DNA of 64,000 bases from Escherichia phage kaset. The notes under the pieces are model-generated. The model searched no databases. It was not told the origin of the DNA and saw nothing but the letters and a program-made list of their open reading frames with translations. Location of the stretch: the sequence record PV245935.1. One strand, 5' to 3'. Shown here piece after piece: positions 25,471-41,989 of this stretch. The translations under genes were made by a program, and so were the position numbers. Every line of letters begins with the position of its first letter. Position 1 is the stretch's first letter.

Positions 25471-26445
25471 TTAAAAATACTCCATATCGGTAATATCACG
25501 GAAGCATTTATACAAGGCAGAGCGCGGCACGTCAACGATGCCAAAGTTGAAGAATTTATATGTCAGATACTTGTTGCGATAATTCTCGCGATTCTCCCAA
25601 AGCATTTTTCTCTCTGCCATAGGCATTGAACCAGCGGAGACGCGGAAAGGAATCATTTCACCTTTCTCATCAACATATTTTGGATTGACAACCACAAATG
25701 ATCCAAGGTATCCTTTTGCAACTAAGCCTTCAGCCTCTTTCGAACGCTTAGTGCGACCCAACTCATCAATGAATGCTTCGTTGTTGTTCTCCATCATCTC
25801 AACGAAGTCTATGATCAGTCCTTCTTCATCGGTCCACGGCTTGTCCTTCCACACATCACGTGACTTTGGCGTCGCGCGACCATGCTTGTATTTGCCCGTC
25901 CAAGACTTGCCATACAAGCCTTCATAGCCAAGTTGGTCTGCTTCGATTTGCATTGCCGCGTACTGTTCCATATTTTCGATGTTGCGATATTCGAGAGCGC
26001 GAAGGAATGGACGTCGGCCATGGTCAATGAGATATTGATTGACCTCAGCAACGCGTCGATTATACTGCTCATAACGTGCCGAGAAAGGCAAATCAGGTTC
26101 GCTAAAGTCATCAAACACCCACCATGTGAAGTTTGTTATAGCATCGGTATTCATGCAGGCGGTATAGGCTTGCTGCATTACGTTCTTATCATTCGGATTG
26201 CCGTCAATAAGCTCTCCATCAAGGCCGTGAATCAATTCACCCAAAAAGAGGAACTCTTTTTTAATCTGGACGTTTCGAAGCGCCATGCCGGACGTACCCA
26301 TTGGCAAGTTGTCATACGCCATCGCGCGTATGCCATCGACCTTGAAGGACAACCCGCAAGGCAGCGGCACATCTTCGCCACGCTCGATAATTTGTTTACG
26401 CTGGCAACCTTTCATTGGTTTTAATGCTTTGATTTCCCCTGCCAT
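25471..26445 (-). CDS. ATP-dependent ligase-like nucleotidyltransferase (DNA or RNA ligase)
   Basis: Motif I KVDGIRA (KxDGxR); EGLYGKS resembles motif IV. Confidence 0.55.
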   Translation of the reverse strand: MAGEIKALKPMKGCQRKQIIERGEDVPLPCGLSFKVDGIRAMAYDNLPMGTSGMALRNVQIKKEFLFLGELIHGLDGELIDGNPNDKNVMQQAYTACMNTDAITNFTWWVFDDFSEPDLPFSARYEQYNRRVAEVNQYLIDHGRRPFLRALEYRNIENMEQYAAMQIEADQLGYEGLYGKSWTGKYKHGRATPKSRDVWKDKPWTDEEGLIIDFVEMMENNNEAFIDELGRTKRSKEAEGLVAKGYLGSFVVVNPKYVDEKGEMIPFRVSAGSMPMAERKMLWENRENYRNKYLTYKFFNFGIVDVPRSALYKCFRDITDMEYF

Positions 26446-27038
26446 TACTCGCGACCCTCATTCATTACTTGTTCCATTGCGTAGGCATAAGCCTGATCAG
26501 TCGATTTGATAAACGTGCCGTTGTACATCACCCCTTTACGGTCCTTGATGTCTTCATAGGCGGCTTGAGCGCAATCAGACAGTCGAAGTCCATAATCATG
26601 CGCTACGCCGGAAAGATAATCGACTGCGGCCATGATAGTGACATCAATATCCATGCTTTGATTTTTAGCAATGGCGTCACCAAGCCGTCCGAGAGTCTTC
26701 GCCAAGCGAAGGATAAAGGAATGAGGGTGAGCGCCTTTGTCAGCGCAACCGCCGCCGATGATGTCTTCGATTTTTGCACCATTTTGCGCGGCAAGAATAG
26801 TTAACACAACAAGGCAATCACCGATGTCGTCCTTGATTGCGGCTTGCAAATCACAAATGGCCTGCTCTGTATATCCGATTTCAGGGTCAAAGAACACAAG
26901 GTCATGGAGTTGATCCACGTGGTCGGTCAACTCCCCAAACTCGCTAATAAGCTTCGGGTATTGGTCTTTAAGGTCGCAACCTTTGATGATGTTACGGTCA
27001 GAAGCCCATTGGCGAATGTTTGCATAAATCTGGTTCAT
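26445..27038 (-). CDS. MazG-like nucleotide pyrophosphohydrolase candidate
   Basis: EFGEL and IGDCLVVL segments resemble MazG EExGE / GDxL helices. Confidence 0.45.
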   Translation of the reverse strand: MNQIYANIRQWASDRNIIKGCDLKDQYPKLISEFGELTDHVDQLHDLVFFDPEIGYTEQAICDLQAAIKDDIGDCLVVLTILAAQNGAKIEDIIGGGCADKGAHPHSFILRLAKTLGRLGDAIAKNQSMDIDVTIMAAVDYLSGVAHDYGLRLSDCAQAAYEDIKDRKGVMYNGTFIKSTDQAYAYAMEQVMNEGRE

Positions 27039-27610: not shown

Positions 27611-28471
27611 TTAAAACTCTTCTGCGTCGGTCGGAGTTTCATTGACAGGACCAGCGGCACCACTTGCTTCTTCCTGCTTGCTGCGGTCAATGTTAACGTT
27701 GCCGCCAACTACGTCGTTGTGGAACGCTTTGGCGACTTCGTACAGGCCTTTGTCCTGCACCAGACCTTCCAGCTCAAACTTCAGGACGGACCAGGTGTTG
27801 CCGTCTTTGGACTGAGACGCAGTACCCATGCGAACGATGTTCATGAAGGTCGGCGGCATTTTCAGGCCCTGCGGAGTCTGAACTTTCTTCTGCTGCAGCG
27901 CGGTCATCAGCATGCGAGACGGCTTGATCATGGAAGAAGTCAGAGACAGCATTGCGCTACCAAATTCACCAGTTTCTTCGTTCAACAGGATCACAAAGTG
28001 GTTACGTGTATCTGCGTAGTAAGGTGATTTCTTCTCGTGCACCTTGCCGTTTTCGTCTGGAACAAACACCTTACCGTTGATCTCAACAGCGCGGCCTGCC
28101 GCGACTTCTGCATCAACGTGCTCTTTGGTAAATTCACCTTTAAAGCCTTTATCGTCGGACTCGCGACCGCCCCAAAGGATGAAGGTGCGTTTGAATGCAC
28201 AAGGGATGATCTGCACGCCTTTCTTGCCGTCATACAATTCACCAGTAACGGTATTGTACAACATACCAGCTTTTGCGCCAGGAACGTGTTTTGGATCATC
28301 TTCGTCGACCATCGGAGACATCTTTTGCAGTACGACGATAAAAGGAATGGCATAAGCGTCGGCATCGGCACCTTCAAAACCAGCGCCAAAATCGGTCATA
28401 TCGACAAAATCAGCCATAGCGGACATCTGGGTGTTTTTCACTGCAACTTCGGTAGTTTCTTTCTTAGACAT
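27611..28471 (-). CDS. Putative ssDNA-binding protein (T7 gp2.5-like by C-terminal acidic tail)
   Basis: Acidic C-terminus ending ...TDAEEF; location within replication module; similarity judged by eye. Confidence 0.4.
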   Translation of the reverse strand: MSKKETTEVAVKNTQMSAMADFVDMTDFGAGFEGADADAYAIPFIVVLQKMSPMVDEDDPKHVPGAKAGMLYNTVTGELYDGKKGVQIIPCAFKRTFILWGGRESDDKGFKGEFTKEHVDAEVAAGRAVEINGKVFVPDENGKVHEKKSPYYADTRNHFVILLNEETGEFGSAMLSLTSSMIKPSRMLMTALQQKKVQTPQGLKMPPTFMNIVRMGTASQSKDGNTWSVLKFELEGLVQDKGLYEVAKAFHNDVVGGNVNIDRSKQEEASGAAGPVNETPTDAEEF

Positions 28472-28530
28472 TTGATGTTTTCCTATAGTATCAAGTTTCG
28501 TGGCAACCTGATTTCAAGATAAAGGTTAAA

Positions 28531-29088
28531 TTACTTTTTGCTTTTAGGCAAGGTTATTTTAGCTTCTTTATACTCAAAGACGCTAATATCTTCACTGACT
28601 GGATTACCCGCTTCCAGCTGTTCTTTTACGAATGACTTCAGTGTAGCAGAATGAACGCCTTGTTTCAACGTGGCTTCAATACCGTCTTCACGCAGCGCGG
28701 CAACAATCTCTTGCGCTTGCTCGATTTCTTCGCGACCGAACTCAGCCGTGACGCTGGACTTGATCAAGCCGCCGTAACCGTTGTTGACAAGCCAATCGAA
28801 TACTTTCAATTCATTTTCTTTCTTAATTGAAGCATTGACTTTTGACTCGACCTTGATTTTGGTCTTGTCTTCAAGCTTGATTTCGGACACGCCAAGCTCA
28901 TCCATAACGCCAGGAAGCAGAACAGTTTTGATTTCACTGATGCGCTGCTTTTGCATATCAGCTTCATCTTCAAGCTCTGTCAAAGCTTCTTGGCGTTCTG
29001 CCAATTCCGATACTAAGCGCGCAAGGCGCTCTTGGATGCTCTCAGGAGCGACCTGCGGCAAATCATCTTCCCAATTAATATTGCTCAT
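28531..29088 (-). CDS. Hypothetical protein
   Basis: ATG with RBS AAGAAGGT; start codon lies in first copy of a 52-bp tandem repeat. Confidence 0.5.
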   Translation of the reverse strand: MSNINWEDDLPQVAPESIQERLARLVSELAERQEALTELEDEADMQKQRISEIKTVLLPGVMDELGVSEIKLEDKTKIKVESKVNASIKKENELKVFDWLVNNGYGGLIKSSVTAEFGREEIEQAQEIVAALREDGIEATLKQGVHSATLKSFVKEQLEAGNPVSEDISVFEYKEAKITLPKSKK

Positions 29089-30998: not shown

Positions 30999-31417
30999 GA
31001 CAATTCCTCTAAATACTTAATGATGTGATGAATAGTTCCCTTCACGATTATCTCACGTTGAACGTCTGCAATATTATAACGCTTTAATTCAATCGAAGGG
31101 TGGACTAAATAAAACATCTTCTCAGAATCGACTTTAAGCAAAACAAATGATGGGTATTTCCAATCATTCCACGAAGAAAGAAAGCTGCACTGACCTTTCT
31201 CAAATGCATTTCTGAAAGGTGCAGTGGTAGCCCTTGCAGGCCACGATTCAAAGAACTTCATTTCAAGCCAAAAGCCGCGCCCTTTCCGGTTGGTGCCGAT
31301 TACATCCGGCACACCATCACCCGTCATGGATTCGATTCTTTGAAGCTTCAATACTGATTCCGAATGCTTCTTCAAAGGTACGAATATGTATTTCTGTTCA
31401 CGGTTGTTTGTTGCCAT
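30995..31417 (-). CDS. VRR-NUC / PD-(D/E)xK nuclease
   Basis: GVPDVIG ... FWLEMK motif; AGGTG RBS before ATG 31417; adjacent to SNF2 helicase. Confidence 0.6.
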   Translation of the reverse strand: MATNNREQKYIFVPLKKHSESVLKLQRIESMTGDGVPDVIGTNRKGRGFWLEMKFFESWPARATTAPFRNAFEKGQCSFLSSWNDWKYPSFVLLKVDSEKMFYLVHPSIELKRYNIADVQREIIVKGTIHHIIKYLEELS

Positions 31418-34301
31418 CTGGATACACCTGTTTGATAACGTCGACGATGAACATGTCAATGCCTTCAAGTTTGCGACCTTTCATCAGGAAGAATGCACCG
31501 TTCCCGACGTTCTCTGCAATGTACTTCCCGTACTTCTGGAACTTCTCTGGGCGAATCCTGAAACGCATTGGCGAATCGGTCGAATCGTCTTTGCACATAA
31601 GGTCGATGAACTGAGTTTCAAGCTTGTTTCCATACTGGTCAAACTCTGCGTAGCGGCCATCGGCCTGAAGACCCTTTTTAAGTTTGCCGTGCTTTGTATA
31701 AATGCCGCGCTCAAGACGTTTACGGATTCGTGTTGCTTCGTTCTCGTCTGCCAGCACTTTCTTGGTCAACTTGCCGATTACTATTGCACGCTCATCATCG
31801 CCTACTTCCTTCATCTGGCGTATTGAAGCACCGGAAGTAACGCCAATCAGATAGGGGTCATTATACGCCCAGCCGAACTTGGTGTGCATCTCTGTAAGGT
31901 CGCCGTATTTGACTTCAGCATTGGCCAATGCATCCTTTTGCTTTTGCGTTAAGGTTCCGGCTTCACGTGCTTCGATATACTTCATCGCCTTCACCATTCC
32001 GTACCCTTTAGCGTTCATGATGCCGCCGATTAGCTTTCCGTTAGCGATGGTCCAGTTCATTGAAGAGTGATCAGGGTCGATTGGCACATAATCCACGCCT
32101 TCCTTCGCAAGTTCACGTAATATCGCAATCGTCTGGTCTTCGTCCTTAGCAGCGCGTAAGCAGGCAGCGGCAAATTCCAACGGGTAGTGTCGTTTAAGCC
32201 ACAAGGTCCAGTAGGTCACGACCGCGTATGATACGGAGTGTGACTTGTTAAAGCCCCATGACCCGAACGTCGCCATCGCTTGCCAAAGCTTTCTTGCATC
32301 CGCTTCCGGTACGCCGTTATTTATTGCGCCTGCAACGAAGTCTTCGCCAAGCTTGTTAAAGTATTCCTCACCCTTACGGCCTGACATCGCCTTACGTACA
32401 GCGGATGTCTTCGCCCAGTCAAATGAACCAATCTCTTTCACCACGGCCATGATTTGCTCTTGGTAAAGAAACACGCCGTAAGTCTCTTTTAAGTACGGCT
32501 CAAGCTGCGGCACGTCGTACTCAATCGGCGCACGTCCTGCCGCGCGTTCAATGTATTTCTGGGCCATACCGGATGACAACGGGCCAGGTCGACCAAGTGC
32601 TGTCAGGTTATCGATTTTGTTAAAGTTATCAACGTGCACAAAGTTGGTTACTGAGCGTACAGCATCGCCTTCGAACTGGAAGATGCCTGACATCTTATTT
32701 TCGTTAAGGATGTCAAGGACGCTTTGATCATTGAGCTTGATTCCGTACAGCGTTTCAGCATCTATCACGCCAGTATCGGAAATTATTCCGAGTGTGCGGA
32801 GGCCCAGCGCATCAAGCTTCAAAAGGTTAAGGTATTCGCTGTCAGGCTTATCAATTTGCGCAATCCCTTCCGCCGTTACCGTACAGTAATCAGAGATTGG
32901 ATCATTACACACGATGATTCCCGCTGCGTGAACGCCAGTGTGGGAAGGGTGAATCTCAAGGTCACCCATGCATCGCGCGGCGTCAGGATATTTCGCCACG
33001 AACTCTTGGCCCGTGGTCGTGGTTGCAAAGGTATCCTCCAGGCCGTGACCATAACGGGCGTCACCGGATGAGTATTCAAGCAATGCGTTTTTAATGTTGG
33101 CCGTTTCGTGATAGCCGATGTTGAACTTCTTACCAACCTGAGCCATTACTGAGTTGGCCTTAAGCGTGTTGATGTTGCCAAGTTTTGCAACGTTCATTTC
33201 GCCGTATTTTTCTTTAAGGTAATCAAACACCATATAGCGTTTGGTATCCTCAAAGTCAATATCAATATCAGGAAGGTCGGCGCGGCTTACGTCGATGAAT
33301 CGGGCAAACAACAGCTTATACGGGATTGGGTCAACTTCCGTGATGCCGAGACAATAGCAAACCAGTGAACCAGCCGATGAGCCGCGAGCGGGTCCGACGA
33401 GCATTTTTGTCTTTGCGAATCGTACAAGGTCTGCTACCACCAGAAAGTATGAGTCGAAATCTTTCAGCTGAATCTGGTGAATCTCTTCGTTGAATCGGTC
33501 CTCATATTCCTGAGTCCATTCTTTGATGTGGCCTGCCTTGAGGCGGTACTCCATCCCCTCACGAGCAAGTTTAACCATGTCACCAGCAAGGTGAATAATC
33601 GGTGCCTTGCGCAACTTCAGGCCAAGCCCCACGATTCCGTTTGCGATATCAACAGCATTGGACGTTGCTTGATTCAACTCATCTTCGGTAAGGATTCCTT
33701 CAAGCTGTTTTCGCAAGTCTTCCGCGTCAACGATGCAATGCGGCTTAACTGTGTCGCGAACTTCCCACGCATAAGCAAAGTCGACGTGCTCAGGTGAAGG
33801 CATATGGTTGTATCCGGTTAAAACCAGCGGCCTTCCGTTGCTGCGGTGAGCCAATGCCTGGCGCTTAGCCAAAAGGAACGATGATGGGTTGACGTCTATA
33901 TAATCGTAGTCCTCTGGCAGCAGCAACTCCACGGCACCGCCACAGAATTTAACGACTCCATCGAGCGCCCCGAACTCTGCACGGGTCAGTCCGCCGCGCT
34001 GTGTTGCAAGTGTCGTAGCGTTGTAAAAAGATTTCAGGTCAAGGGCCAATATCCAAGCCTTCGGTTTGAATCCCTTTTTCGGGTCCGCATCAGGGTCAAT
34101 GATTGGAATCTCCATGCCGAACATAGGCTTGATATCATTCTTCTGACATTCCTTTTCCCAGCGAACGTGACCCCATGTATTGTTGTCAACTAATGCCGCG
34201 ACTTCGCAGCCCAACTCTTTGAGCCGTGCTATAATTTCAGGATGCCGTCCATATACTTCTTTGAACGTGTAACCGCTGCGAACTCTCAATTGTGGAAACA
34301 T
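31398..34301 (-). CDS. DNA polymerase III alpha-like (DnaE-type) replicative polymerase
   Basis: 967 aa; motif NKSHSVSYAVVTYWTLWLKRHYPLEFAAA characteristic of DnaE family. Confidence 0.8.
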   Translation of the reverse strand: MFPQLRVRSGYTFKEVYGRHPEIIARLKELGCEVAALVDNNTWGHVRWEKECQKNDIKPMFGMEIPIIDPDADPKKGFKPKAWILALDLKSFYNATTLATQRGGLTRAEFGALDGVVKFCGGAVELLLPEDYDYIDVNPSSFLLAKRQALAHRSNGRPLVLTGYNHMPSPEHVDFAYAWEVRDTVKPHCIVDAEDLRKQLEGILTEDELNQATSNAVDIANGIVGLGLKLRKAPIIHLAGDMVKLAREGMEYRLKAGHIKEWTQEYEDRFNEEIHQIQLKDFDSYFLVVADLVRFAKTKMLVGPARGSSAGSLVCYCLGITEVDPIPYKLLFARFIDVSRADLPDIDIDFEDTKRYMVFDYLKEKYGEMNVAKLGNINTLKANSVMAQVGKKFNIGYHETANIKNALLEYSSGDARYGHGLEDTFATTTTGQEFVAKYPDAARCMGDLEIHPSHTGVHAAGIIVCNDPISDYCTVTAEGIAQIDKPDSEYLNLLKLDALGLRTLGIISDTGVIDAETLYGIKLNDQSVLDILNENKMSGIFQFEGDAVRSVTNFVHVDNFNKIDNLTALGRPGPLSSGMAQKYIERAAGRAPIEYDVPQLEPYLKETYGVFLYQEQIMAVVKEIGSFDWAKTSAVRKAMSGRKGEEYFNKLGEDFVAGAINNGVPEADARKLWQAMATFGSWGFNKSHSVSYAVVTYWTLWLKRHYPLEFAAACLRAAKDEDQTIAILRELAKEGVDYVPIDPDHSSMNWTIANGKLIGGIMNAKGYGMVKAMKYIEAREAGTLTQKQKDALANAEVKYGDLTEMHTKFGWAYNDPYLIGVTSGASIRQMKEVGDDERAIVIGKLTKKVLADENEATRIRKRLERGIYTKHGKLKKGLQADGRYAEFDQYGNKLETQFIDLMCKDDSTDSPMRFRIRPEKFQKYGKYIAENVGNGAFFLMKGRKLEGIDMFIVDVIKQVYPDGNKQP

Positions 34302-34843
34302 TATTTACTCCATATGTCATATACGCCAATTTGTTGGCAGACTTTGTGCAGTAATATTACGTCGTCTAATGCACGGTGCTTCTGTTCATATTTTCCGAAA
34401 TATAATTCATACAACTCTTGAAGCTTAACTCTTCGGCCAAAAATAGGCAAGGTTTGCTCGACTGTACAAATGTTTATTTCTGGAAAATTAACATCACCAA
34501 GTGTAAGACCTTCGCGCTGTAATGCATAGTCAAGAATGTTTTTATCAAACGCATGGTTGTGCGCGATAGTTGCATCCGTCTTCTTGAATATTTCTTTTAG
34601 CTGCGGAACGAAATGAATAAATGGTGGATTGCACTCAAGGTCTTCGTTGGTTAATCCGGTAATCTTCGTGATGATTTCTTCAATCACAATTTCAGGATTA
34701 ATTATGAACTCGAACGTTTCAAGAATCTCTTTGCCGTCCGTCAACAGGCCTGCAAATTCAATAGGGCGCGGCTGCATTCCAAGCGGCGCTTTCGGGTGCA
34801 CGGTTAATCCGGTTGTTTCGAAGTCATAAGGGAGAAATAACAC
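34301..34843 (-). CDS. DnaQ-like 3'-5' exonuclease (proofreading)
   Basis: Exo motifs DFETTGL, HNHAFD, HRALDDV; immediately upstream of polymerase gene. Confidence 0.75.
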   Translation of the reverse strand: MLFLPYDFETTGLTVHPKAPLGMQPRPIEFAGLLTDGKEILETFEFIINPEIVIEEIITKITGLTNEDLECNPPFIHFVPQLKEIFKKTDATIAHNHAFDKNILDYALQREGLTLGDVNFPEINICTVEQTLPIFGRRVKLQELYELYFGKYEQKHRALDDVILLHKVCQQIGVYDIWSK

Positions 34844-34897
34844 ATTGGCCTCCTACAAAAAGGCCGCCCATTAGGACGGCCACAGATTCAAGATTCG

Positions 34898-35449
34898 TTA
34901 TGCAGTGTACGGAGTGCCGTCTTGATTCAACCGCACGATGAATTTAAGGTCTACACCGATGATTTCACGCGTATCAAAGATCACATAGTTGTAACGACGC
35001 TGACCAGCAATATTTGGGTTGGTGTGAGAGTCAGTTACGACTTCCTGCGCAACCTGAATGCCTTCTTCTTTAAAGAACTTACGCCATTCAGCAAGTTCAG
35101 CGACAGTCACGTGCATACCAAGATGGCTGACCTGATTATCGTGCGCATCGAGCATGTCGATGTTTTCGTTGATCCAGTTGCAACCTTTTGTGTAGTCAAG
35201 AATTTCAAGTTCAAGAGGCTTGCCAGCGCCGCCATCGGTGCCGTTGCCAGCCTGATAGTTGAAGCGCAAGTCAGCTTCATTGGTGCAATCGTCGCGACGA
35301 CCTTTAAATTCATCAGCTTCAAATACGCGACCAGTAGCAACAACATGATCATGGAACCATTCTGTCAGGCCGATTTTGGCCAGAAAATCCTGTGCACGCT
35401 GAGCATCTGGAATTGACAGGGCGATTTGTTCAATTTTAAAGTGTGGCAT
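34898..35449 (-). CDS. VOC (glyoxalase/dioxygenase)-like fold protein, hypothetical
   Basis: Two beta-alpha-beta-like modules (IEQIALSIPDAQRAQDFLAKIGL; HLGMHVTVAEL) judged by eye. Confidence 0.45.
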   Translation of the reverse strand: MPHFKIEQIALSIPDAQRAQDFLAKIGLTEWFHDHVVATGRVFEADEFKGRRDDCTNEADLRFNYQAGNGTDGGAGKPLELEILDYTKGCNWINENIDMLDAHDNQVSHLGMHVTVAELAEWRKFFKEEGIQVAQEVVTDSHTNPNIAGQRRYNYVIFDTREIIGVDLKFIVRLNQDGTPYTA

Positions 35450-35469
35450 TTTGTTTCCTTAATTAAATA

Positions 35470-35685
35470 TTATTGATTAATTACTGTGTTGTCTTCGTCC
35501 TGTTTCTTTTCAGGAGCGGGTGTGACAACTTCAAATTTAGGTTTGGGCAATTCACCTTTAGCACCTGGGACTTCAACGACAATCTTTTTGTCAGGCTCAA
35601 CAGGATTTGGAACTTCAAATTTGATCGTGTATCCTAATACAACAAGAAGCACTAAACCGATTACCGCTACCCAGGCTTTGTTCAT
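35470..35685 (-). CDS. Small membrane-anchored protein, hypothetical
   Basis: N-terminal TM segment AWVAVIGLVLLVVLG, Pro/Lys-rich tail. Confidence 0.5.
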   Translation of the reverse strand: MNKAWVAVIGLVLLVVLGYTIKFEVPNPVEPDKKIVVEVPGAKGELPKPKFEVVTPAPEKKQDEDNTVINQ

Positions 35686-35688
35686 GAT

Positions 35689-36372
35689 TTATTTCCCAAA
35701 TGGAATATCAGTACCAGACATAAAGCGCCATGCGCCCGTAATTAAGATATGGCGAATGAAGTCAGCAATTACTTGCGGCTCAGTCTCCAATCCATTCATC
35801 AACGCCTTTTTCTGGTATTCAGCAGCATACTCAGGAGTCCAGCCGCGAGTCGCGCAAACAGCATCTTCAATCTGTTTAGACATACCAGTGCCGCGCAACT
35901 TGTTAGGACTAATAGAGAATACCGTGATCCCGTATTTAGGCGTAAGTTCGTGGGCCATCTGCTTACTGATCATAAGCGCAGCGGCCTTGGAAGCATTATA
36001 ACACAAGCTGGACGTCATAGGAATATGCGCAGCGTTGGAAACGATATTGATCACAAAACCTTTGTTGTCGATAAGACTTTTCAGTGTCGCCTGAGTCGTG
36101 TTAACGAAAGAGAAAGCGTTGGTATGCATAACGCGGTTAAATTCTTCGTAGTTGACATCTTCAAACCAGTTGTTGGAGTTTACGCCAGCACAGTTGATCA
36201 AGCCTTCTACATCATATGGGCTTAAAATTTCTTTCATCTGTTTAGCGTCGCGGACGTCATATCCGTATGCTGAATCGATGCCAAGCACGTTATGACCGTA
36301 AGCGCCAAGGGTGTCAAAAATAGATTTACCAAGACCAGAATTGGAACCTGTTACAACAATTACTTTTTTCAT
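35689..36372 (-). CDS. Short-chain dehydrogenase/reductase (SDR) family oxidoreductase
   Basis: Rossmann motif VTGSNSGLG and catalytic YNASKAA (YxxxK). Confidence 0.7.
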   Translation of the reverse strand: MKKVIVVTGSNSGLGKSIFDTLGAYGHNVLGIDSAYGYDVRDAKQMKEILSPYDVEGLINCAGVNSNNWFEDVNYEEFNRVMHTNAFSFVNTTQATLKSLIDNKGFVINIVSNAAHIPMTSSLCYNASKAAALMISKQMAHELTPKYGITVFSISPNKLRGTGMSKQIEDAVCATRGWTPEYAAEYQKKALMNGLETEPQVIADFIRHILITGAWRFMSGTDIPFGK

Positions 36373-36437
36373 TTATTTATCCTTTTTGGACTTCGTTTCG
36401 ATGAGATAAATATAACTCATCGAAACGCACAAGTAAA

Positions 36438-37310
36438 CTATTTATTGAAATTAATATTGTGGGTGTTGACGAGACGTTCACACATGGCGCTGTAAACACC
36501 ATCATCGTGTATAGAGTCTTCGTGCTTCAGGCCGCTGATTGCGAAGCGTGTAAGCTTGACAATCTTAAGCTCGAACAGATGCCACATGTGGTAGTCTTCC
36601 GGCGTTTTCAACGTTACGCCATTAGGGAAAAGCACCTGCATAACCTGGCCAACCATCACGGCGTTATCGCCATAGACAGCGTTGCGCTCACGGAAGGTTG
36701 CCGCCATTGCATCAAGAATATCGGCGGCAGTGGCCGGAGATTGTTCAATTTCCACAGCCTTAGTCTCTTCTTGCCCTGTTGCGCTTGGATCAATTGCTAA
36801 TTGTTGCACCACTTCACCTGCCTTGCAAAGATTAAATGTAAAAGCGATTTTATTTTGAGCAACGGAATTATAATACAATGCTTCATCTTGCATCCGCGCG
36901 AGCACGTCTTGTCGGTCGTCGAATACATTGATGATTCGATAATCGCCGTGCCGCAATGCGTGCGATAGCCATGCAGATTTCATAATAGTTGATGGACGTT
37001 TGTCGCCATAGTCTCTCATCTTGATTGTAAATTCATCAAAAGGAAAAACATTGTCCAGACGTTCAAAAGTCACTTGTCTGTATTTTTCTGGCCTTGCAGT
37101 CCAATATTCAACCGCCTCACCGCGAAGAGATGCCGACTCTACTGCTGATGCAATGTGAGGATAGAACTGATCATAACCAATACCGCTGTGATAGTCATCA
37201 TAGTCTGACAACGGACCTGCCACCTTGATGCGGTCTAAGCGCCAACGGTCATCAAACAGCGTTCCGTCAAGGTCGAATACGTTTAAGATTTCGCTGTTTT
37301 TAATGCTCAT
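36438..37310 (-). CDS. HAD-superfamily hydrolase domain protein with extra C-terminal domain
   Basis: Motif I VFDLDGTLFD (DxDGT); later VFDDRQD. Confidence 0.6.
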   Translation of the reverse strand: MSIKNSEILNVFDLDGTLFDDRWRLDRIKVAGPLSDYDDYHSGIGYDQFYPHIASAVESASLRGEAVEYWTARPEKYRQVTFERLDNVFPFDEFTIKMRDYGDKRPSTIMKSAWLSHALRHGDYRIINVFDDRQDVLARMQDEALYYNSVAQNKIAFTFNLCKAGEVVQQLAIDPSATGQEETKAVEIEQSPATAADILDAMAATFRERNAVYGDNAVMVGQVMQVLFPNGVTLKTPEDYHMWHLFELKIVKLTRFAISGLKHEDSIHDDGVYSAMCERLVNTHNINFNK

Positions 37311-38152
37311 CCTTTTGATACTCCATCTTTAGCGACTGGATTGTTGGTGATTGGCATCGCACTCCAAAACTGGATGCGCAACTCTTCTTGCTGTGCCGTG
37401 GTATCCATCCAATCACGATACCAAGGGCAATGTGCTTTACCGTGACGGGGAAATGCGCACTTACCCATACCGATGCATTGCGGCTGTAGTAAAGGATTAG
37501 CCCAAGGGTGCACCTTGAGGACTTCCGCAACCATTGCACGAAATACTTCTTGATACTCGCCTTGAGTGCGCGTGCACAAGCGGTTTGACGCCATCTGCTG
37601 CAGCGTGCGCAAGTTGAACTTTGCCATGATATGCGTTTGCATATTAGAAGGCAACACGGCACGTGCATCCTGAATCTCTGCGCCAGCCGCGCGAAGTTCT
37701 TGGTATAGGGCGTCAATGGTTGCCATTGCATCATCCCACTTCTCTGCCAGCACACTTCTTTTTTCAGAGTCCCAGTATCCTTCTTCATCCTGGTCGAAAA
37801 AGTCTTTTTTACCAAGATCATCTAAACTATCAAAATCACCATCCCTTTCAAATGCCTTCGGACGAATTGCATCAAACGCAGACGACTCCTGAGCGCGGCT
37901 AGTGCGTTCTTGATATGCGCCTGTGCGTGTGCGCACCATCTGATGGGTCATGTTCTTTGAAACATCAGTGATGTCAAAGATATAGTCCACAAAGTCAAAG
38001 GGCGACTTGATTGTATCAAGCATGTAGCGCCAGTGCTCTTGCTTCTCTGATTCTGTCATCTCAGAGACAGGCTTGCCAGTCATGCGCGTGTTCTTTGTTT
38101 CCAGCAAAAGGTCAAGTGCATCTTGGGTGTATCGAATTAATTCAACTTTCAT
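37307..38152 (-). CDS. ThyX-like flavin-dependent thymidylate synthase homolog (divergent)
   Basis: ARAVLPSNMQTHIMAKFNLRTLQQM resembles ThyX ARxVLPxN...NxRSL block; RHR-like motif present as RTRTGAYQERTSR. Confidence 0.55.
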   Translation of the reverse strand: MKVELIRYTQDALDLLLETKNTRMTGKPVSEMTESEKQEHWRYMLDTIKSPFDFVDYIFDITDVSKNMTHQMVRTRTGAYQERTSRAQESSAFDAIRPKAFERDGDFDSLDDLGKKDFFDQDEEGYWDSEKRSVLAEKWDDAMATIDALYQELRAAGAEIQDARAVLPSNMQTHIMAKFNLRTLQQMASNRLCTRTQGEYQEVFRAMVAEVLKVHPWANPLLQPQCIGMGKCAFPRHGKAHCPWYRDWMDTTAQQEELRIQFWSAMPITNNPVAKDGVSKG

Positions 38153-38166
38153 TTTAATTATTCCTA

Positions 38167-38613
38167 TTAACGGTAATTCACTAATTGCTGATCACCAGAG
38201 AAGGTGCAATGATAAACGAATTGTGCGTTGTAAAGCAACTGAAAACTTTTCTTTGGTTCACTATTAGCACTCATCGATGTGAATACTTCTGCACCGGAAC
38301 GGTTTTCACCAATCAGATTGATAAAGCCGCCAGTTGAACGAGGTTGAACGAAAGTGAAACGTTGCATCCACGGAGTCCGGTTGGCACCTTTACCCGTGAA
38401 TCCTTGAATCTGAATATTCAGACCTTCTTGCTCATTCACACCGATGTAAGTGGTAATCTTCGCACCAGTCGTTGCTGCGGTCTTGCCGTCCATCGCTTCG
38501 CAATCGTAAACAGCGATTGAATCGGAAGTACGGATGGCAGCTTCAGTCGCTTCCATATACATGGTGCCGAGAATAGCAGTTGCGGCAAGCGCGATTCCAG
38601 TGATTCGTTTCAT
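38167..38613 (-). CDS. Secreted protein with signal peptide, hypothetical
   Basis: N-terminus MKRITGIALAATAILGTMYMEA; two Cys residues. Confidence 0.5.
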   Translation of the reverse strand: MKRITGIALAATAILGTMYMEATEAAIRTSDSIAVYDCEAMDGKTAATTGAKITTYIGVNEQEGLNIQIQGFTGKGANRTPWMQRFTFVQPRSTGGFINLIGENRSGAEVFTSMSANSEPKKSFQLLYNAQFVYHCTFSGDQQLVNYR

Positions 38614-38677
38614 TTCGTTTCCTCTATGAGTTCTGCTTCAATGATTAAAGTATACGCCCATTGAAGCAGAAAGCAAA

Positions 38678-39673
38678 TTATTTATTGGCAATATAAGCAA
38701 ATTTTTGATAGTTATTTGCTTTGATGAGTTTTTCAACTTCAACAAGGTCATGAGCGACGTCATCAAGCAAAATGTTGCGCCAGGTAGCGAATCGACCAAC
38801 ACTAAACACGTTCAAATCCATAGTCAGCTGCAGGAGTAGGGCGTGTCGCAAGTCTTTCGGAATGTCGACAATCTTGCCATATTTCTGGTCGACCTTTTCA
38901 ACTTCTTCAAGAGCAATGTCACTCCATGAAAGGCCAAAGGCCGTCAACACTTCGTCGACTTCTGCGCGAAGCTTTATGTCACGGTAACGAGTGATGCCGC
39001 CAGCGGCTTCAACTGCAGCTTCACTTACGCTGACCAAAGGAATTGTTTCAATGATAAGCGTGTCACCAGTAATTGATGCGCGGTAAGTTCTGACTGAGTA
39101 GTCAGGGAAGTAAATTGTTTGATACAACTCACACTTACGTTTAATCTTAAAGCGGTAAACACGAATGTTTGCTTTATCAAATGAGAAATCAAGCTTTTGA
39201 TCAATCCCAGCAAGCTTCAGCATGACTGGCAGCGGCGATGTGTTGATGATTGGCGTCTCGCTATAGCCGCAAAGAGTATCAACCGGAGTATTAAAGAATA
39301 TGCGGTCACCCAGTTTGTCGACAAGCTGATCATAAAAGTCATCAGGCGCAATATAACGCGTTGCAGTTTTAAGCTTCATGATTGAACGGCTGCCAAACTG
39401 ATTGGTGACCTTCATGGAATACATATTGGCAAGGTTAATTGGGCAATGGTCGTGGTAGTAGTTGCCGCGAAAATACACAGCCTTGTCAACTGTCACGGCC
39501 TTAAAGGGGATTCCGGTAATACGGCTTACTTCTTCGCCACGGAAGCGTAGCAACGCCTTGTGCTGTTGCGCCCGTTCCCCTGCTTCGTACACAATAGAGT
39601 TCGGGAAGTGACACGCTGTGATAAGTCCTGCCAGTCCGCCGCCGATAATCATTACAGGTTGTTTCATGTTCAT
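38678..39673 (-). CDS. FAD/NAD(P)-binding oxidoreductase
   Basis: N-terminal dinucleotide-binding motif VMIIGGGLAGL (GxGxxG). Confidence 0.6.
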   Translation of the reverse strand: MNMKQPVMIIGGGLAGLITACHFPNSIVYEAGERAQQHKALLRFRGEEVSRITGIPFKAVTVDKAVYFRGNYYHDHCPINLANMYSMKVTNQFGSRSIMKLKTATRYIAPDDFYDQLVDKLGDRIFFNTPVDTLCGYSETPIINTSPLPVMLKLAGIDQKLDFSFDKANIRVYRFKIKRKCELYQTIYFPDYSVRTYRASITGDTLIIETIPLVSVSEAAVEAAGGITRYRDIKLRAEVDEVLTAFGLSWSDIALEEVEKVDQKYGKIVDIPKDLRHALLLQLTMDLNVFSVGRFATWRNILLDDVAHDLVEVEKLIKANNYQKFAYIANK

Positions 39674-39805
39674 TTGTCCTTTGTGGGTGATATGAGAAGT
39701 ATAATAGCTAAATTATTTTACAGCAACAAGTCATTTTATTTAGTACAGATGAAAAAAGACCCACAACAAGTGTGGGTCAATTACCGCTGCATAACCGTCC
39801 TAAGG

Positions 39806-40651
39806 TTATTCCGCTTGATCACCGTCTTCGGCATCGTCGTTGGATTCAACATCGACAAACTCGATGTGGCCCATCTCTTCCAGCTTGCTCAGGTAGGAGC
39901 GAACGGAAGCGCCAAACAGTTGATCTTTAACTTTTTCGCCCAGCTCATCGATAGACTGCGCCACGCCAACTTCGCCTTCTTTGATCGCCGCTAGAACGCG
40001 TCCACGGGTGGAATGCTCTTGCGGCTGGCTCAGGCCATTGCCAGTGTAGATGAAGTGGGTTGCTTTTGCACGACGCTGACCGTTTGCCTTTTTAGCAGCC
40101 TTACGTTCTGCGATGGCTTTGCGACGTTCTTCAGCTTCTTGCTTACGCTGTTCTTTCTGCTGTTCTGCAGCTTCTTTTGCCGCAATCTTAGCAGCTTCAC
40201 GCTCTGCCTTGCGTTTCGCTTTAGCTTCTTCTTTGGCCTTCTCTTTTTCGGCCTTCGCTGCAGCACGGGCTTGATCACGCTCTGCTTTCTTAGCAGCAGC
40301 TTGTTCAGCTTTCAGGCGCTTGGCTTCTTCTTTAGCCTTTGCCTTTTCGATTTCTTTCGCTGCTTTAGCGGCTTCACGCTCTGCTTTCTTAGCAGCAGCC
40401 TTTTCTGCGCGCTCTTTGGCCTTCTTAGCTGCTTCTTCAGCACGCTTCTGAGCCTTCTCATCAGCAGCCTGCTTGCGTTTCAGTGCAGCTTCTTCACGCT
40501 TGGCTTGTTTTTCCTGCTCACGCTTCTGGCGTTTTTCTTCGGCTTCTTTCTTTTTAGCCAGGCGTTTTTCTTCAGCCACGCGACGACGTTCTGCTGCAGC
40601 TGCTTGTTTTTCTTCTTTAGATAATACTTTGATTGCTTCGGCCATGTTCAC
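39806..40651 (-). CDS. Highly charged Lys/Ala/Glu-repeat protein with globular C-terminal domain
   Basis: About 200 aa of KAE-rich low-complexity repeats (AEEKR, KAKEEAK) then acidic tail; nucleotide-level repeats gcttctttagc. Confidence 0.5.
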   Translation of the reverse strand: MNMAEAIKVLSKEEKQAAAAERRRVAEEKRLAKKKEAEEKRQKREQEKQAKREEAALKRKQAADEKAQKRAEEAAKKAKERAEKAAAKKAEREAAKAAKEIEKAKAKEEAKRLKAEQAAAKKAERDQARAAAKAEKEKAKEEAKAKRKAEREAAKIAAKEAAEQQKEQRKQEAEERRKAIAERKAAKKANGQRRAKATHFIYTGNGLSQPQEHSTRGRVLAAIKEGEVGVAQSIDELGEKVKDQLFGASVRSYLSKLEEMGHIEFVDVESNDDAEDGDQAE

Positions 40652-40804: not shown

Positions 40805-41989
40805 TTAACGCGCTTTCAAATCACGGTACACGGTCAGATTCTTTTTAGCGCGGGTGATGGCGGTGTACATCATCTTGGAGTACGGAACGCCGCGCAAGAT
40901 TTCTTCCAGCACGCACACATTGTCCCACTCGCTGCCTTGCGATTTGTGCACCGTTATGACATAGCCATAGTCCATGCCTCCAACAGCGCGTTGGGCCTCT
41001 TTGCGCACTTCCTGATCAGTAGAGAAGGAAAGAGGATTTATCTTCACCTTTATATCTTTGCCATCGGTAAGCGAGCGCAAATTGACATACATTATTTCAT
41101 TGGACTCGTCTTCATCCCTTTCAAAGTCCGGTACTGGCTCATAACTAATAACAATCCCTTGCTCGCCATTACAGAATCCTGGACCGTGTTGGTTGAATGT
41201 GCAAATAACTTTCTCGCCGATTCCTGGCATTGGCGTTATACGTCCGCTCACTTGGCGCAATAATGAATTCCATTTATCTTTGGTGCTATTATATGAGCAA
41301 ATAATTTGATCATCTTCGCCCATGAATTTCTTCAACGCAGTAACGCGCGGCGATTCAGCCAAAACCTTGACGTCATCGTATTCACGCGGAGGAAGTCGGT
41401 TGCCCTGTCGCACGAAGAAGGAAGCGCGGATTATGTTTGACTCTTTTCCTTGCCGCATGATTTCGGTTAACAGTACGTCAACGGCATCTTCAGTAAAGTA
41501 GGCGGCGGCTTTTACCGGAGGGACTTGTCCAATGTCGCCTAATGCCAGAACAGGGATGCGGTGATCAAGAAGGCGCTCTGTGTCCCACTCGCCAACCATT
41601 GAAGCTTCATCAAGGACGACAAGATGCGGCCTTTCATCAAGCGTTGACTTCCTTGCAAAGATTGGTTCATTGTCATCGTTAACGCCGCGCACGTTATAGA
41701 TGAACTGATGAAGGGTCTTAGCGCCACGACACCCTTTCTGCTTCAATCGGCTGGCGGCCTTTCCGGTCGGCGCAATATAAATGGCACCGTACTCACCGAC
41801 ACAACGGCGCACAATCTCACGCGCAATAGATGTTTTACCTGTTCCTGCATAGCCAGCGATGAAAAACACGCGCTTCGTTGTTTTACCGTCCTGCAATCGC
41901 TTGTACCATGCAACGGCCTTTTCGATGGCATCAATTTGTTGCGCGTTGAACTGAATCACTGGCTCATTATTAAATTCTGGAATGTTCAT
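40805..41989 (-). CDS. SF1B helicase, Dda/RecD-like
   Basis: Walker A AGYAGTGKT; VLDEASM (motif II); VHKSQGSEWDNV and TAITRAK (motifs V/VI). Confidence 0.7.
   Translation of the reverse strand: MNIPEFNNEPVIQFNAQQIDAIEKAVAWYKRLQDGKTTKRVFFIAGYAGTGKTSIAREIVRRCVGEYGAIYIAPTGKAASRLKQKGCRGAKTLHQFIYNVRGVNDDNEPIFARKSTLDERPHLVVLDEASMVGEWDTERLLDHRIPVLALGDIGQVPPVKAAAYFTEDAVDVLLTEIMRQGKESNIIRASFFVRQGNRLPPREYDDVKVLAESPRVTALKKFMGEDDQIICSYNSTKDKWNSLLRQVSGRITPMPGIGEKVICTFNQHGPGFCNGEQGIVISYEPVPDFERDEDESNEIMYVNLRSLTDGKDIKVKINPLSFSTDQEVRKEAQRAVGGMDYGYVITVHKSQGSEWDNVCVLEEILRGVPYSKMMYTAITRAKKNLTVYRDLKAR

Follow-up and report, generated by a model that had tools for sequence, protein, structure and literature searches.

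The window under study, the whole 64,000-nucleotide stretch of Escherichia phage kaset (PV245935.1), was assigned to Wifcevirus (PB1-like E. coli myovirus). Positions 34898-39673 hold seven ORFs, all on the minus strand, flanked by the genes for DnaQ (34301-34843) and DnaE (31398-34301) on one side and by a Dda-like helicase gene (40805-41989) and TolA-like genes on the other; ORFs and flanks were confirmed as proposed by a previous sequence-only reading. A DNA ligase gene and a MazG-like gene are located in the same replication arm. Two strong minus-strand intrinsic terminators enclose exactly the seven genes. The upstream one (39758..39778, 8-bp stem followed by TTTTTT) is, as judged from its sequence, the end of the helicase/TolA-like transcription unit, and the other (34862..34881, 8-bp stem with seven GC pairs, followed by TTTTT) closes the operon before DnaQ. 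The same pair is annotated in the record of phage Mansfield. The earlier view of a single seven-gene cluster held for these boundaries, but not for conservation: on sequence comparison, the operon is made up of a conserved three-gene core (GlfL, ThyX-like, HAD-DUF6378), an accessory SDR/VOC pair and two small Wifcevirus-specific ORFs.

The first gene of the operon (38678..39673, minus strand) encodes GlfL, an orphan FAD-type flavoprotein (phrog_4828) present in 361 phage records. Its fold is of the UDP-galactopyranose-mutase (UGM)/protoporphyrinogen-oxidase (PPOX)/amine-oxidase type, with UGM as the closest and PPOX scoring almost equally. At 331 aa, GlfL is shorter than these flavoproteins (365-470 aa), with which it shares 11-18% identity. 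None of 43 GlfL members matched Pfam GLF, and a profile-sequence comparison with E. coli Glf revealed nothing shared beyond GxGxxG.

The ThyX-like protein (37307..38152, minus strand, 281 aa; Thy1, 3e-30) belongs to a clade found in about 365 phage records. In common with canonical ThyX (PF02511/TIGR02170), it has the Thy1 fold, the arginines that bind the phosphate and base of dUMP, Q75, N163 and R165. All the dUMP-binding arginines are kept in the clade, where R78, R80, R90, R147, R165, R174, Q75 and N163 are invariant. It differs from canonical ThyX by the change of H53 (folate/flavin face) to I, by an acidic insert, and by being always paired with an orphan flavoprotein. Matches to ThyX structures in the PDB were weak (E about 1e-3). 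The sequence-only reading had described a divergent ThyX with RTR in place of the RHR motif, and this was borne out: the motif reads R[T/S/N]R across the clade, and H53I, H59F, H79T/S/N, Y91A/V and H178R were fixed in 69/69 members (subfamily signature, in T. maritima numbering, I53/F59/T79/A91/R178), while S88 is mostly T. Control phage ThyX sequences retained H53 (Y in STSV2), H79, S88 and Y/F91. A canonical ThyX would have counted against that reading; its motifs are not those found here, and the score for the NCBIfam thyX equivalog TIGR02170 (75.2) fell below the cut-off (87.9). By prediction, the protein belongs to a distinct subfamily of flavin-dependent enzymes that alkylate pyrimidines at C5.

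The stop of this gene overlaps by 4 nt the start of the third core gene (36438..37310, minus strand, 290 aa), which encodes a HAD phosphatase-DUF6378 fusion. The HAD domain (HAD_PNKP, 5e-8, above cut-off) resembles the phosphatase of PNKP, without the kinase domain. The extra C-terminal domain suspected previously (residues about 190-290) could be identified as DUF6378, a four-helix bundle joined through a variable linker and matched by 14 of 22 orthologs (best 3.6e-6).

The accessory SDR (35689..36372, minus strand, 227 aa; adh_short, 6e-31) is FabG-like (phrog_3142), has both classical motifs, TGxxxGxG and YxxxK, and its best PDB matches were FabG-type reductases (E about 1e-12). Its partner, the last gene (34898..35449, minus strand, 183 aa), encodes a VOC/glyoxalase-superfamily protein. 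Glyoxalase_4 matched it only below the cut-off (E=0.004) and matched 16 of 25 orthologs (best 9.3e-6); a PDB sequence search returned no match. Its invariant residues Q8, E82, H109 and D167 are inferred to lie at the positions expected for VOC metal ligands. The VOC, SDR, ThyX-like and HAD assignments of the sequence-only reading are all consistent with these profiles. SDR and VOC were both present in 28 loci and both missing in 12, VOC occurred without SDR in one, and SDR is absent from Pbunavirus; compared with that genus, Wifcevirus has SDR, VOC and two small exported ORFs in addition. The remaining two ORFs, a 148-aa protein with an N-terminal signal peptide (38167..38613, minus strand) and a 71-aa peptide with an N-terminal TM anchor (35470..35685, minus strand), had no matches in family searches. 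Homologs of the former, an insert between GlfL and ThyX, were limited to Wifcevirus loci (L001, L005-L007), the corresponding gap in Pbunavirus holding different small ORFs, and tblastn matches to the latter were found only in L001 and L005. Both probably stand outside any pathway encoded by the operon.

Among 69 unique GlfL loci, ThyX was found in 59/59 of those extending far enough, DUF6378 in 50/52, DnaQ in 39/41 and DnaE in 37/38. Comparison of gene neighbourhoods across related phages showed the order GlfL>ThyX>HAD on one strand in 58/58 loci, which indicates that these genes do not stand together by chance. This arrangement was kept with DnaE identity down to 37%, and the trio was also detected on unrelated backbones, namely Cronobacter podophage Ss1, a 40-kb Ralstonia phage and 206-kb Rhizobium phages. 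In Pbunavirus, which belongs to the same phage supergroup as Wifcevirus, orthologs of GlfL, ThyX-like and HAD-DUF6378 lie in the same order and adjoin DnaQ-DnaE.

The sugar-like modification of thymidine has been shown chemically only in Pbunavirus. LC-MS of virion DNA from phages F8 and 14-1 revealed derivatives of thymidine (362 and 390 Da) carrying adducts the size of a tetritol or a pentose, located at TG and replacing about 1/4 of T; the authors stressed the absence of known modification genes, and the biosynthetic genes remain unassigned (Yee et al. 2025 preprint, PMC12191111). The masses correspond to dU + C5H11O4 (362) and dU + C6H11O5 (390), or to 5-hmdU plus a tetritol or pentose minus H2O. 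The proportion of T in TG context, 26.5% in the window and 27.4% in F8, fits the replaced fraction. A matching footprint was observed in both genera. For 6-bp palindromes of the window, the pooled O/E was 0.98 for those containing TG/CA and 0.70 for the others (p=1.4e-3), and in F8 the values were 0.97 and 0.76. Across 31 cluster-bearing loci they were 0.87 and 0.65 (29/31; Wilcoxon 2e-8), versus 0.62 and 0.62 in six unmodified control phage lineages, and TG/CA was the only dinucleotide class with a palindrome excess. S_TG differed between cluster-bearing genomes and controls (p=9e-7), while S_noTG did not (p=0.7). TG-containing palindromes escape avoidance in cluster-bearing genomes, where other palindromes are avoided as strongly as in unmodified phages. 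Shared ancestry confounds the link between cluster and footprint, as the DnaE replication module is common to all the loci that bear the cluster.

We consider it probable that the operon is a locus making sugar- or polyol-type hypermodified thymidine in virion DNA, although there are no nucleoside data for Wifcevirus and no genetics or biochemistry on the genes. The best explanation of the data is that the operon represents the Pbunavirus modification in its Wifcevirus form and would shield T in TG context from restriction. In PB1-like therapeutic phages, the genes responsible for adding sugar-like groups to thymine in DNA are still unassigned, and this operon is the best candidate for them. 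The support is circumstantial (ThyX motifs, Pbunavirus adducts, TG footprint), and both the chemistry and the TG-reading step are inferred. The sequence-only reading, which suggested a pathway leading to a noncanonical pyrimidine or a sugar-nucleotide, is supported to that extent, probably without the two small ORFs. In the proposed route, the ThyX-like enzyme would, like canonical ThyX, activate dUMP at C5 and would stop short of the folate-dependent reductive methylation, the C5 substituent being or becoming a sugar-bearing methylene. Either an exocyclic-methylene intermediate may be trapped by a sugar hydroxyl, giving ethers of 5-hmdU, or a flavin-N5 sugar iminium from GlfL, an intermediate of UGM chemistry, may take the place of the flavin-N5 methylene iminium, in which case the 'methyl' carbon would be C1 of an aldose. 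Both variants agree with the published masses. The HAD domain would strip phosphate off a sugar-phosphate or nucleotide intermediate, DUF6378 would be essential in an unknown role, and SDR and VOC, in Wifcevirus and the many relatives that have them, could reduce or isomerise the sugar and so yield a different adduct.

Two known systems offer partial parallels. In the 5-hmdU pathway of phages M6, ViI, SP10 and PaMx11, T is also partially replaced, in a motif-dependent manner, by an adduct that is linked through a C5 methylene and prevents restriction, and by analogy the exocyclic-methylene intermediate is probably common to both routes. That pathway, however, employs a ThyA-family dUMP hydroxymethylase, the P-loop kinase 5-HMUDK and aGPT-Pplase/AADT transferases, with amino acids as donors (Lee et al. 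2018, 2021; PMC5889632, PMC8989533), whereas the Pbunavirus adducts are sugar-like. None of these enzymes was detectable here, and the other mid-size ORFs of the window and of F8 yielded no dioxygenase, glycosyltransferase, 5-HMUDK or aGPT-Pplase. The flavin-dependent 5-hydroxy-dCMP synthase of RB69 and DLP3, a ThyA homolog, is a precedent for a phage enzyme of the thymidylate synthase family with switched cofactor chemistry generating a new C5 substituent, later glycosylated (PMC13326640), and UGM homologs also occur in such clusters. It has a ThyA fold, targets cytosine and is served by dedicated glycosyltransferases, while the Wifcevirus system has a ThyX fold, would act on thymine/uracil and lacks a glycosyltransferase.

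In many phages ThyX serves merely as a source of dTMP, and it is possible, if rather unlikely, that the operon combines nucleotide supply with auxiliary metabolic genes while other, unrecognised genes make the hypermodification. The ThyX-like protein would then be a divergent functional thymidylate synthase for rapid replication, GlfL its flavin reductase or an unrelated oxidoreductase, HAD-DUF6378 a partner of the phage ligase, acting as a nucleotidase or as a 3'-phosphatase on DNA ends, and SDR and VOC morons. ThyX is indeed widespread as a phage dTMP source (544 records), the dUMP-binding arginines are intact, the HAD domain is closest to the PNKP phosphatase with ligase and MazG-like genes in the same arm, the trio of the Rhizobium jumbo phage is located among dUTPase and RNR genes, and the extremely fast replication of Wifcevirus (PMC11990801) implies a high dTMP demand. 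TG specificity, moreover, argues for a sequence-reading enzyme at the DNA level, whereas ThyX enzymes use mononucleotides, and the lack of a recognisable DNA-binding or base-flipping domain in any cluster protein likewise counts against a modification operon. Against a mere supply role speak the clade-wide loss of H53, H59, H79 and Y91 with a score under the equivalog cut-off, and the strict association with DUF6378 and an orphan UGM-fold flavoprotein, which ordinary phage ThyX does not have; neither Wifcevirus nor Pbunavirus yielded any other enzyme candidate, and the enzyme types present match sugar-type adducts.

The TG motif and partial replacement would be accounted for if ordinary T were incorporated and GlfL, as an amine-oxidase/PPOX-like dehydrogenase, ran the final ThyX step backwards by oxidising the thymine methyl in DNA at TG to an exocyclic methylene, to be trapped by a sugar or polyol; HAD-DUF6378 would process the phosphorylated donor and ThyX only supply dTMP. 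The adduct masses suit this, the many invariant Arg/Lys residues of GlfL are compatible with a polyanionic substrate, and PaMx11 gp47 shows that modified T in DNA can be the substrate of a FAD enzyme (PMC8989533). We nevertheless regard it as improbable, given that flavin-dependent oxidation of the thymine methyl is without precedent, that no DNA-binding domain is detectable in GlfL, whose nearest folds act on small molecules, and that the ThyX remodelling is left unexplained. Least credible of all, and very unlikely, is a sugar-nucleotide or other small molecule unrelated to DNA, for example for host surface glycans (superinfection exclusion, O-antigen remodelling). The UGM-like fold invites it, as the E. 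coli O16 O-antigen, the Wifcevirus receptor, has galactofuranose made by host Glf, and so do the two exported or membrane proteins and the SDR and HAD enzymes typical of sugar pathways. Yet the exported ORFs are confined to Wifcevirus while the core is kept in phages of Pseudomonas, Xanthomonas, Rhizobium, Ralstonia and others, no GlfL member matched Pfam GLF, there is no glycosyltransferase, and neither the TG footprint nor the close association with ThyX and the replicase would be explained.

Within the preferred reading of a thymidine hypermodification locus, a further difficulty is that F8 and 14-1 have different adducts despite the same gene set at the locus (81-97% identity); what determines the adduct may lie outside this locus or come down to a few substitutions. 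The resistance of Wifcevirus to RM systems was reported, unexplained, in the BASEL work. Counted in favour of the preferred reading, the EcoP1I site, AGACC/GGTCT, contains no TG. On the other side, Wifcevirus resists EcoRI in vivo, even though the site GAATTC has no TG and is itself one that the window avoids (O/E 0.56), which indicates that another factor also contributes to RM resistance. F8 does not resist EcoRI, and the adduct or the extent of modification may therefore differ between F8 and Wifcevirus.

The seven co-directional minus-strand ORFs that the sequence-only reading had placed at 34898-39673 were all found at those coordinates. Profile searches gave a weak VOC/glyoxalase match (34898-35449), a clear match to a classical SDR (35689-36372), a HAD_PNKP phosphatase domain in the N-terminal half of its protein (36438-37310) and a Thy1/ThyX domain (37307-38152), all on the minus strand. 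The 331-aa product of 38678-39673 (-), here called GlfL, matched only PHROG 4828, of unknown function, and no family was matched by a 71-aa membrane-anchored ORF or a 148-aa signal-peptide ORF, both also on the minus strand. Strong intrinsic minus-strand terminators at 39778-39758 and 34881-34862 enclose exactly these seven genes, which makes the cluster a discrete transcription unit, and the same pair is annotated in the curated Mansfield record. The operon lies between a Dda-helicase/TolA-like block and DnaQ-DnaE, and the window shares about 95% identity with the Wifcevirus genomes ECML-117, FEC19, Mansfield, WFC/WFH and Bas98-101 of the BASEL collection. The neighboring Lys/Glu/Ala-rich "TolA-like" protein (39806-40651, minus strand; phrog_4765) has a globular C-terminal domain; practically every PB1-like locus has its gene at this place, with the Dda helicase on one side and GlfL on the other, and a terminator divides it from the operon.

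Gene neighborhoods, whose comparison the sequence-only reading had proposed, were compared in 80 viral loci with GlfL relatives together with annotated phage records (69 unique GlfL loci). A ThyX-like gene followed GlfL in all 59 loci that were long enough, and the order GlfL, ThyX, HAD on a single strand was kept in 58/58, despite DnaE identity down to 37%. The counts for the other genes were 50 of 52 GlfL loci for the DUF6378 domain, 39 of 41 for DnaQ and 37 of 38 for DnaE. The trio is likewise found in a 42-kb Cronobacter podophage, in which the product of the third gene joins a HAD-like domain to DUF3310, as well as in a Ralstonia phage of 40 kb and in Rhizobium phages of 206 kb, where it is surrounded by dUTPase and RNR genes. 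Within INPHARED, GlfL is present in 361 records and the ThyX-like clade in about 365. SDR and VOC genes were found together in 28 loci and were both lacking in 12, with VOC lacking SDR in one; they are missing from Pbunavirus, and the 71-aa and 148-aa ORFs are confined to Wifcevirus. From these co-occurrence counts, the conserved module is GlfL, the ThyX-like protein and the HAD-DUF6378 protein, with SDR and VOC as an accessory unit. In Cronobacter Ss1 an HNH endonuclease gene separates the HAD-like gene from DnaQ (L002 9271-9717), and a Seg-like endonuclease gene directly follows GlfL in a Rhizobium phage (L003 8909-9559); both are homing endonuclease insertions within the module.

The ThyX-like protein matched Pfam Thy1 (PF02511) at 106 bits (cut-off 24.8, E=2.7e-30), scored under the cut-off of the NCBIfam equivalog TIGR02170 (75.2 vs 87.9 bits), and matched ThyX structures in the PDB with E values of only about 1e-3. 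Its residues were checked in 69 clade members aligned to T. maritima ThyX, the numbering reference, whose sequence as used was consistent with PDB alignments in the motif regions. The motif RHRxxSxxxxSxR(Y/F) is not matched, and the window reads RTRTGAYQERTSRA. This check bore out the divergence claimed from the sequence alone: in 69/69 members H53 is replaced by Ile, H59 by Phe, H79 by Thr, Ser or Asn, Y91 by Ala, Val or Ile and H178 by Arg, while S88 is mostly Thr. The substrate- and phosphate-binding residues Q75, R78, R80, R90, R147, N163, R165 and R174 are invariant in the 69 members, and thus the dUMP-binding arginines of the T. maritima enzyme (R78, R80, R90, R147 and R174) are kept in 69/69. 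In T. maritima ThyX, His53 belongs to the flavin/folate face. Control ThyX proteins from a cyanophage, a Clostridium phage, a Bacillus phage and a Sulfolobus virus kept H53 (Tyr in STSV2), H79, S88 and Y/F91. Among the five control viral proteins, RHR and Y/F91 were kept in four, and position 53 was His in three and Tyr in STSV2; the fifth protein, the "ThyX-like" gp68 of mycobacteriophage Gumball (L092; 366 aa), has L53, Q79 and F91, a deviation unlike that of the GlfL-linked clade, and may represent another non-canonical ThyX subfamily.

Judged from these alignments, the ThyX-like clade is a distinct conserved subfamily and not a decayed copy. Its members are predicted still to bind a dUMP-like substrate and to have a remodelled flavin/folate face, both binding and catalysis being inferred. 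The protein also carries an acidic insert of variable length at about residues 90-140. It is 87-90% identical among Wifcevirus genomes, where neighboring genes are 95-99% identical, and in a Salmonella-phage-like contig (L036) ThyX is 82% identical but DnaE just 60%, a disparity suggestive of mosaic exchange of the ThyX-like gene. A 173-aa ORF in another frame (37300-37821, minus strand), wholly within this gene, is most likely a chance ORF.

For the predicted HAD phosphatase with an extra C-terminal domain, HAD_PNKP was matched above its gathering score (33.5 vs 27.6 bits) and motifs I-IV are present (invariant D13-x-D15-G-T, T71, K111 and D131-D132). No P-loop 5'-kinase domain of the T4 Pnk type was found in this protein, the non-HAD part being assigned to DUF6378; with the catalytic HAD motifs kept and no kinase domain, the PHROG label "polynucleotide kinase" gives a wrong impression. 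The C-terminal half is the most conserved part of the protein. In the window itself it did not match DUF6378 (PF19905), but 14 of 22 aligned orthologs did (best E 3.6e-6), and by way of these orthologs it is putatively assigned to that family. The domain was modelled as a four-helix bundle (pLDDT 93.9), for which no informative structural relative was found. The SDR oxidoreductase was likewise upheld, by an adh_short match of 107.9 bits and by intact cofactor (TGxxxGxG, here TGSNSGLG) and catalytic (YxxxK, here YNASK) motifs. The VOC claim needs its orthologs: the window protein alone falls below the Pfam Glyoxalase cut-off (17.9 bits vs 27) and the VOC profile had no match in the PDB, but 16 of 25 orthologs matched the glyoxalase family at E<=1 (best 9.3e-6), so that the putative assignment holds at the family level.

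GlfL belongs to a family of more than 1,900 proteins (phrog_4828), and its overall fold resembles solved structures of UDP-galactopyranose mutase (UGM, Glf). Sequence comparison did not recover this likeness. None of 43 GlfL family members matched Pfam GLF (PF03275), NAD_binding_8 being the only Pfam match; hhalign against E. coli Glf gave a probability of 4% with coverage of GxGxxG only; and searches of the PDB with the single sequence and with a profile matched only that N-terminal motif. The family has invariant Arg, Lys and Tyr residues. No plasmid match to GlfL was obtained by tblastn.

The DNA of the Pbunavirus phages F8 and 14-1 contains thymidine-derived nucleosides of 362 and 390 Da that replace about a quarter of T, and the adducts were read as a tetrose sugar-alcohol and a cyclised aldopentose; the authors emphasised that Pbunavirus lacks known modification genes (PMC12191111). 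No later paper giving genes to this modification was found in the literature collection searched. By mass arithmetic, 362 and 390 Da correspond to 5-hmdU plus tetritol or pentose minus water, and fit equally dU with a C5H11O4 or C6H11O5 carbon chain. TG context accounts for 27.4% of T in F8 and for 26.5% in the window, in agreement with "about one quarter". F8 DNA is cut by EcoRI, HindIII, XbaI, DraI and BsaI, none of whose sites contains TG (PMC12191111). Wifcevirus resists restriction-modification (RM), with EcoP1_I as the exception (PMC11990801); the EcoP1I site (AGACC/GGTCT) lacks TG and forms part of the BsaI site, at which F8 is cut. In the genus papers on Wifcevirus, no restriction or nucleoside data for its DNA were found. 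When a 15-kb region was compared between F8 and 14-1, gp070 was the most divergent protein (57% identity, with core replication genes at 97-99%). It consists of a Zn-ribbon (CXXC) and a coiled-coil (F8 gp070, L087 2031-3227; 14-1 gp71, L088 1931-3235), and a counterpart is missing at that position in Wifcevirus. Having no enzyme fold, gp070 was rejected as the determinant of the adduct difference between the two phages.

Protection of T in TG would be expected to free TG/CA-containing restriction sites from the avoidance by which phage genomes are shaped. Observed-to-expected ratios (O/E) of all 64 six-bp palindromes were calculated under a maximal-order Markov expectation and pooled for the 16 with TG/CA and the other 48. 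The two classes stood at 0.98 and 0.70 in the window (Mann-Whitney p=1.4e-3), and at 0.97 and 0.76 in F8, which is experimentally TG-modified. Across 31 dereplicated cluster-bearing loci the means were 0.87 and 0.65, with the TG class higher in 29/31 (Wilcoxon p=2e-8). The unmodified controls gave 0.72 and 0.62 (lambda), 0.60 and 0.58 (T7), 0.67 and 0.73 (T1), 0.59 and 0.43 (phiKMV), 0.54 and 0.61 (N4), and 0.58 and 0.72 (P22). Because scans with the T7 and phiKMV DNA polymerases gave close relatives only, each was counted as a single lineage; 12 T7-like loci, pooled at 0.64 and 0.59, were counted with T7. Cluster-bearing loci differed from controls in the TG class (p=9e-7) but not in the non-TG class (p=0.7), and among ten dinucleotide classes only TG/CA exceeded the control baseline (in/out ratio 1.36 vs 1.01). 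The footprint was equal in loci with and without SDR/VOC. No TG contrast was seen among 4-bp palindromes, because only two of these have TG. The footprint ties the window, and the cluster-bearing group as a whole, circumstantially to the TG-specific protection demonstrated chemically in Pbunavirus.

Several other sites are rare in the window. The GC-rich palindromes AGCGCT (0 vs 25 expected), CCGCGG (0 vs 19) and CGGCCG (0 vs 11) are missing; GATC (O/E 0.38) is far rarer than expected, and CCWGG (0.65) moderately rarer. The TG-free EcoRI (GAATTC) and EcoRV (GATATC) sites are avoided as well (O/E 0.56 and 0.33). In the BASEL study, Wifcevirus resists EcoRI in vivo with 18 sites. Resistance despite a TG-free, avoided site implies either an additional anti-restriction mechanism in Wifcevirus or a modification with a broader motif than in Pbunavirus.

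Genes for other routes were sought in the cluster and in 20 further ORFs of medium size from the window and from F8, gp070 included; not every small ORF was covered. The known 5-hmdU/5-HMUDK/AADT pathway was rejected, since its three enzyme types (ThyA-family dUMP hydroxymethylase, 5-hmdU DNA kinase and aGPT-Pplase) were missing from the scanned ORFs by Pfam and PHROGs. A base-J-like route was rejected in the same way, as neither an Fe/2OG dioxygenase (5mYOX/JBP T-dioxygenase) nor a glycosyltransferase domain was found in those ORFs by Pfam; the paper on phage T-dioxygenases mentions neither Pseudomonas phages nor Pbunavirus. What the scan did match were a MazG-like pyrophosphohydrolase, Pam3 gp33/gp34-like proteins, a VapE-like primase-helicase and domains of unknown function. 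Among the ORFs scanned, the operon is the sole recognisable small-molecule enzyme set common to Wifcevirus and Pbunavirus.

Conserved linkage, the remodelled ThyX, the match between the enzyme types and sugar-type adducts, the absence of alternatives among the ORFs scanned and the footprint lead us to consider it probable, though far from settled, that the operon makes hypermodified thymidine. The noncanonical pyrimidine or sugar-nucleotide pathway foreseen from the sequence alone has thereby gained strong but circumstantial support, in which enzyme functions and chemistry remain inferred. The product would share its kind with the known phage thymidine hypermodifications (ThyA/5-HMUDK/AADT), while the ThyX-based, sugar-type enzymology is unrelated. 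The ThyX reaction proceeds by way of a flavin-N5 iminium and an exocyclic C5-methylene intermediate, and that of UGM by way of a flavin-N5 sugar iminium. A sugar hydroxyl might trap the methylene intermediate, or a sugar iminium might replace the methylene iminium; either would yield products with the masses observed. Dephosphorylation of a phosphorylated donor or intermediate would fall to the HAD domain, and SDR and VOC may tailor the sugar in Wifcevirus. A more specific proposal, which we regard as improbable, is that the ThyX-like protein and GlfL carry out a thymidylate-synthase-type reaction with a sugar in place of the one-carbon unit. The N5 sugar iminium of reduced flavin, the UGM intermediate, would then replace the N5 methylene iminium and alkylate C5 of deoxyuridylate, giving a C-C-linked 5-(1-deoxyalditol-1-yl)- or 5-(1-deoxyketosyl)-dU, formula-identical to the 362/390 Da nucleosides.

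The main weakness of the hypermodification reading is that TG specificity needs a DNA-level, sequence-reading step, which no operon protein obviously supplies. A route in which the flavoprotein drives modification after replication and ThyX merely supplies dTMP would act at that level; a Foldseek search of viral structures with GlfL returned its own family only and no characterised DNA-acting flavoenzyme, and we give this route little credence. An ordinary supply of dTMP accompanied by auxiliary genes is a real but unlikely possibility: it would be compatible with the kept dUMP-binding arginines and would have to accommodate the uniform loss of the canonical ThyX residues. The cluster-bearing phages also have the DnaE replication module in common, so that the footprint correlation does not isolate the cluster genes. 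A sugar pathway not concerning DNA, which would leave the TG-specific footprint unexplained, is very improbable.

Pbunaviruses are among the most used P. aeruginosa therapeutic phages, and their DNA hypermodification, found in 2025, has no assigned genes; the RM resistance of Wifcevirus is explicitly an open question in the BASEL study. For both, the operon offers a concrete gene set of three core and two accessory genes. The Wifcevirus vB_Eco4M-7 can be rebooted from assembled DNA (PMC11074155), and F8 and 14-1 are tractable. If confirmed, it would establish a ThyX-based, sugar-type branch of thymidine hypermodification, enzymatically unrelated to ThyA/5-HMUDK/AADT, and a first function for two large orphan families, phrog_4828 and DUF6378. 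It is relevant to host range in phage therapy, to END and type IV restriction and to the enzymatic production of modified DNA. Replacement of the one-carbon unit by a sugar, if true, would be a new reaction class, a flavin-mediated C-glycosyl-type alkylation of a nucleotide, and would bring a new DNA-base family across hundreds of therapy phages. Relief of TG-palindrome avoidance could serve as a sequence-only flag for the trait in metagenomic phages.

Outside the operon, the MazG-like nucleotide pyrophosphohydrolase (26445-27038, minus strand; weak Pfam match) adjoins DNA ligase and is also annotated in Mansfield and as F8 gp049. This enzyme could alter the dNTP pool, for instance through hydrolysis of dUTP or dTTP, and might in that way supply or safeguard the proposed pathway. 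Two adjoining genes at 27611-29088 (minus strand) encode the Pam3 gp34-like (4e-86) and Pam3 gp33-like/DUF7307 (2e-37) proteins, a pair also kept in F8 as gp051 and gp052.
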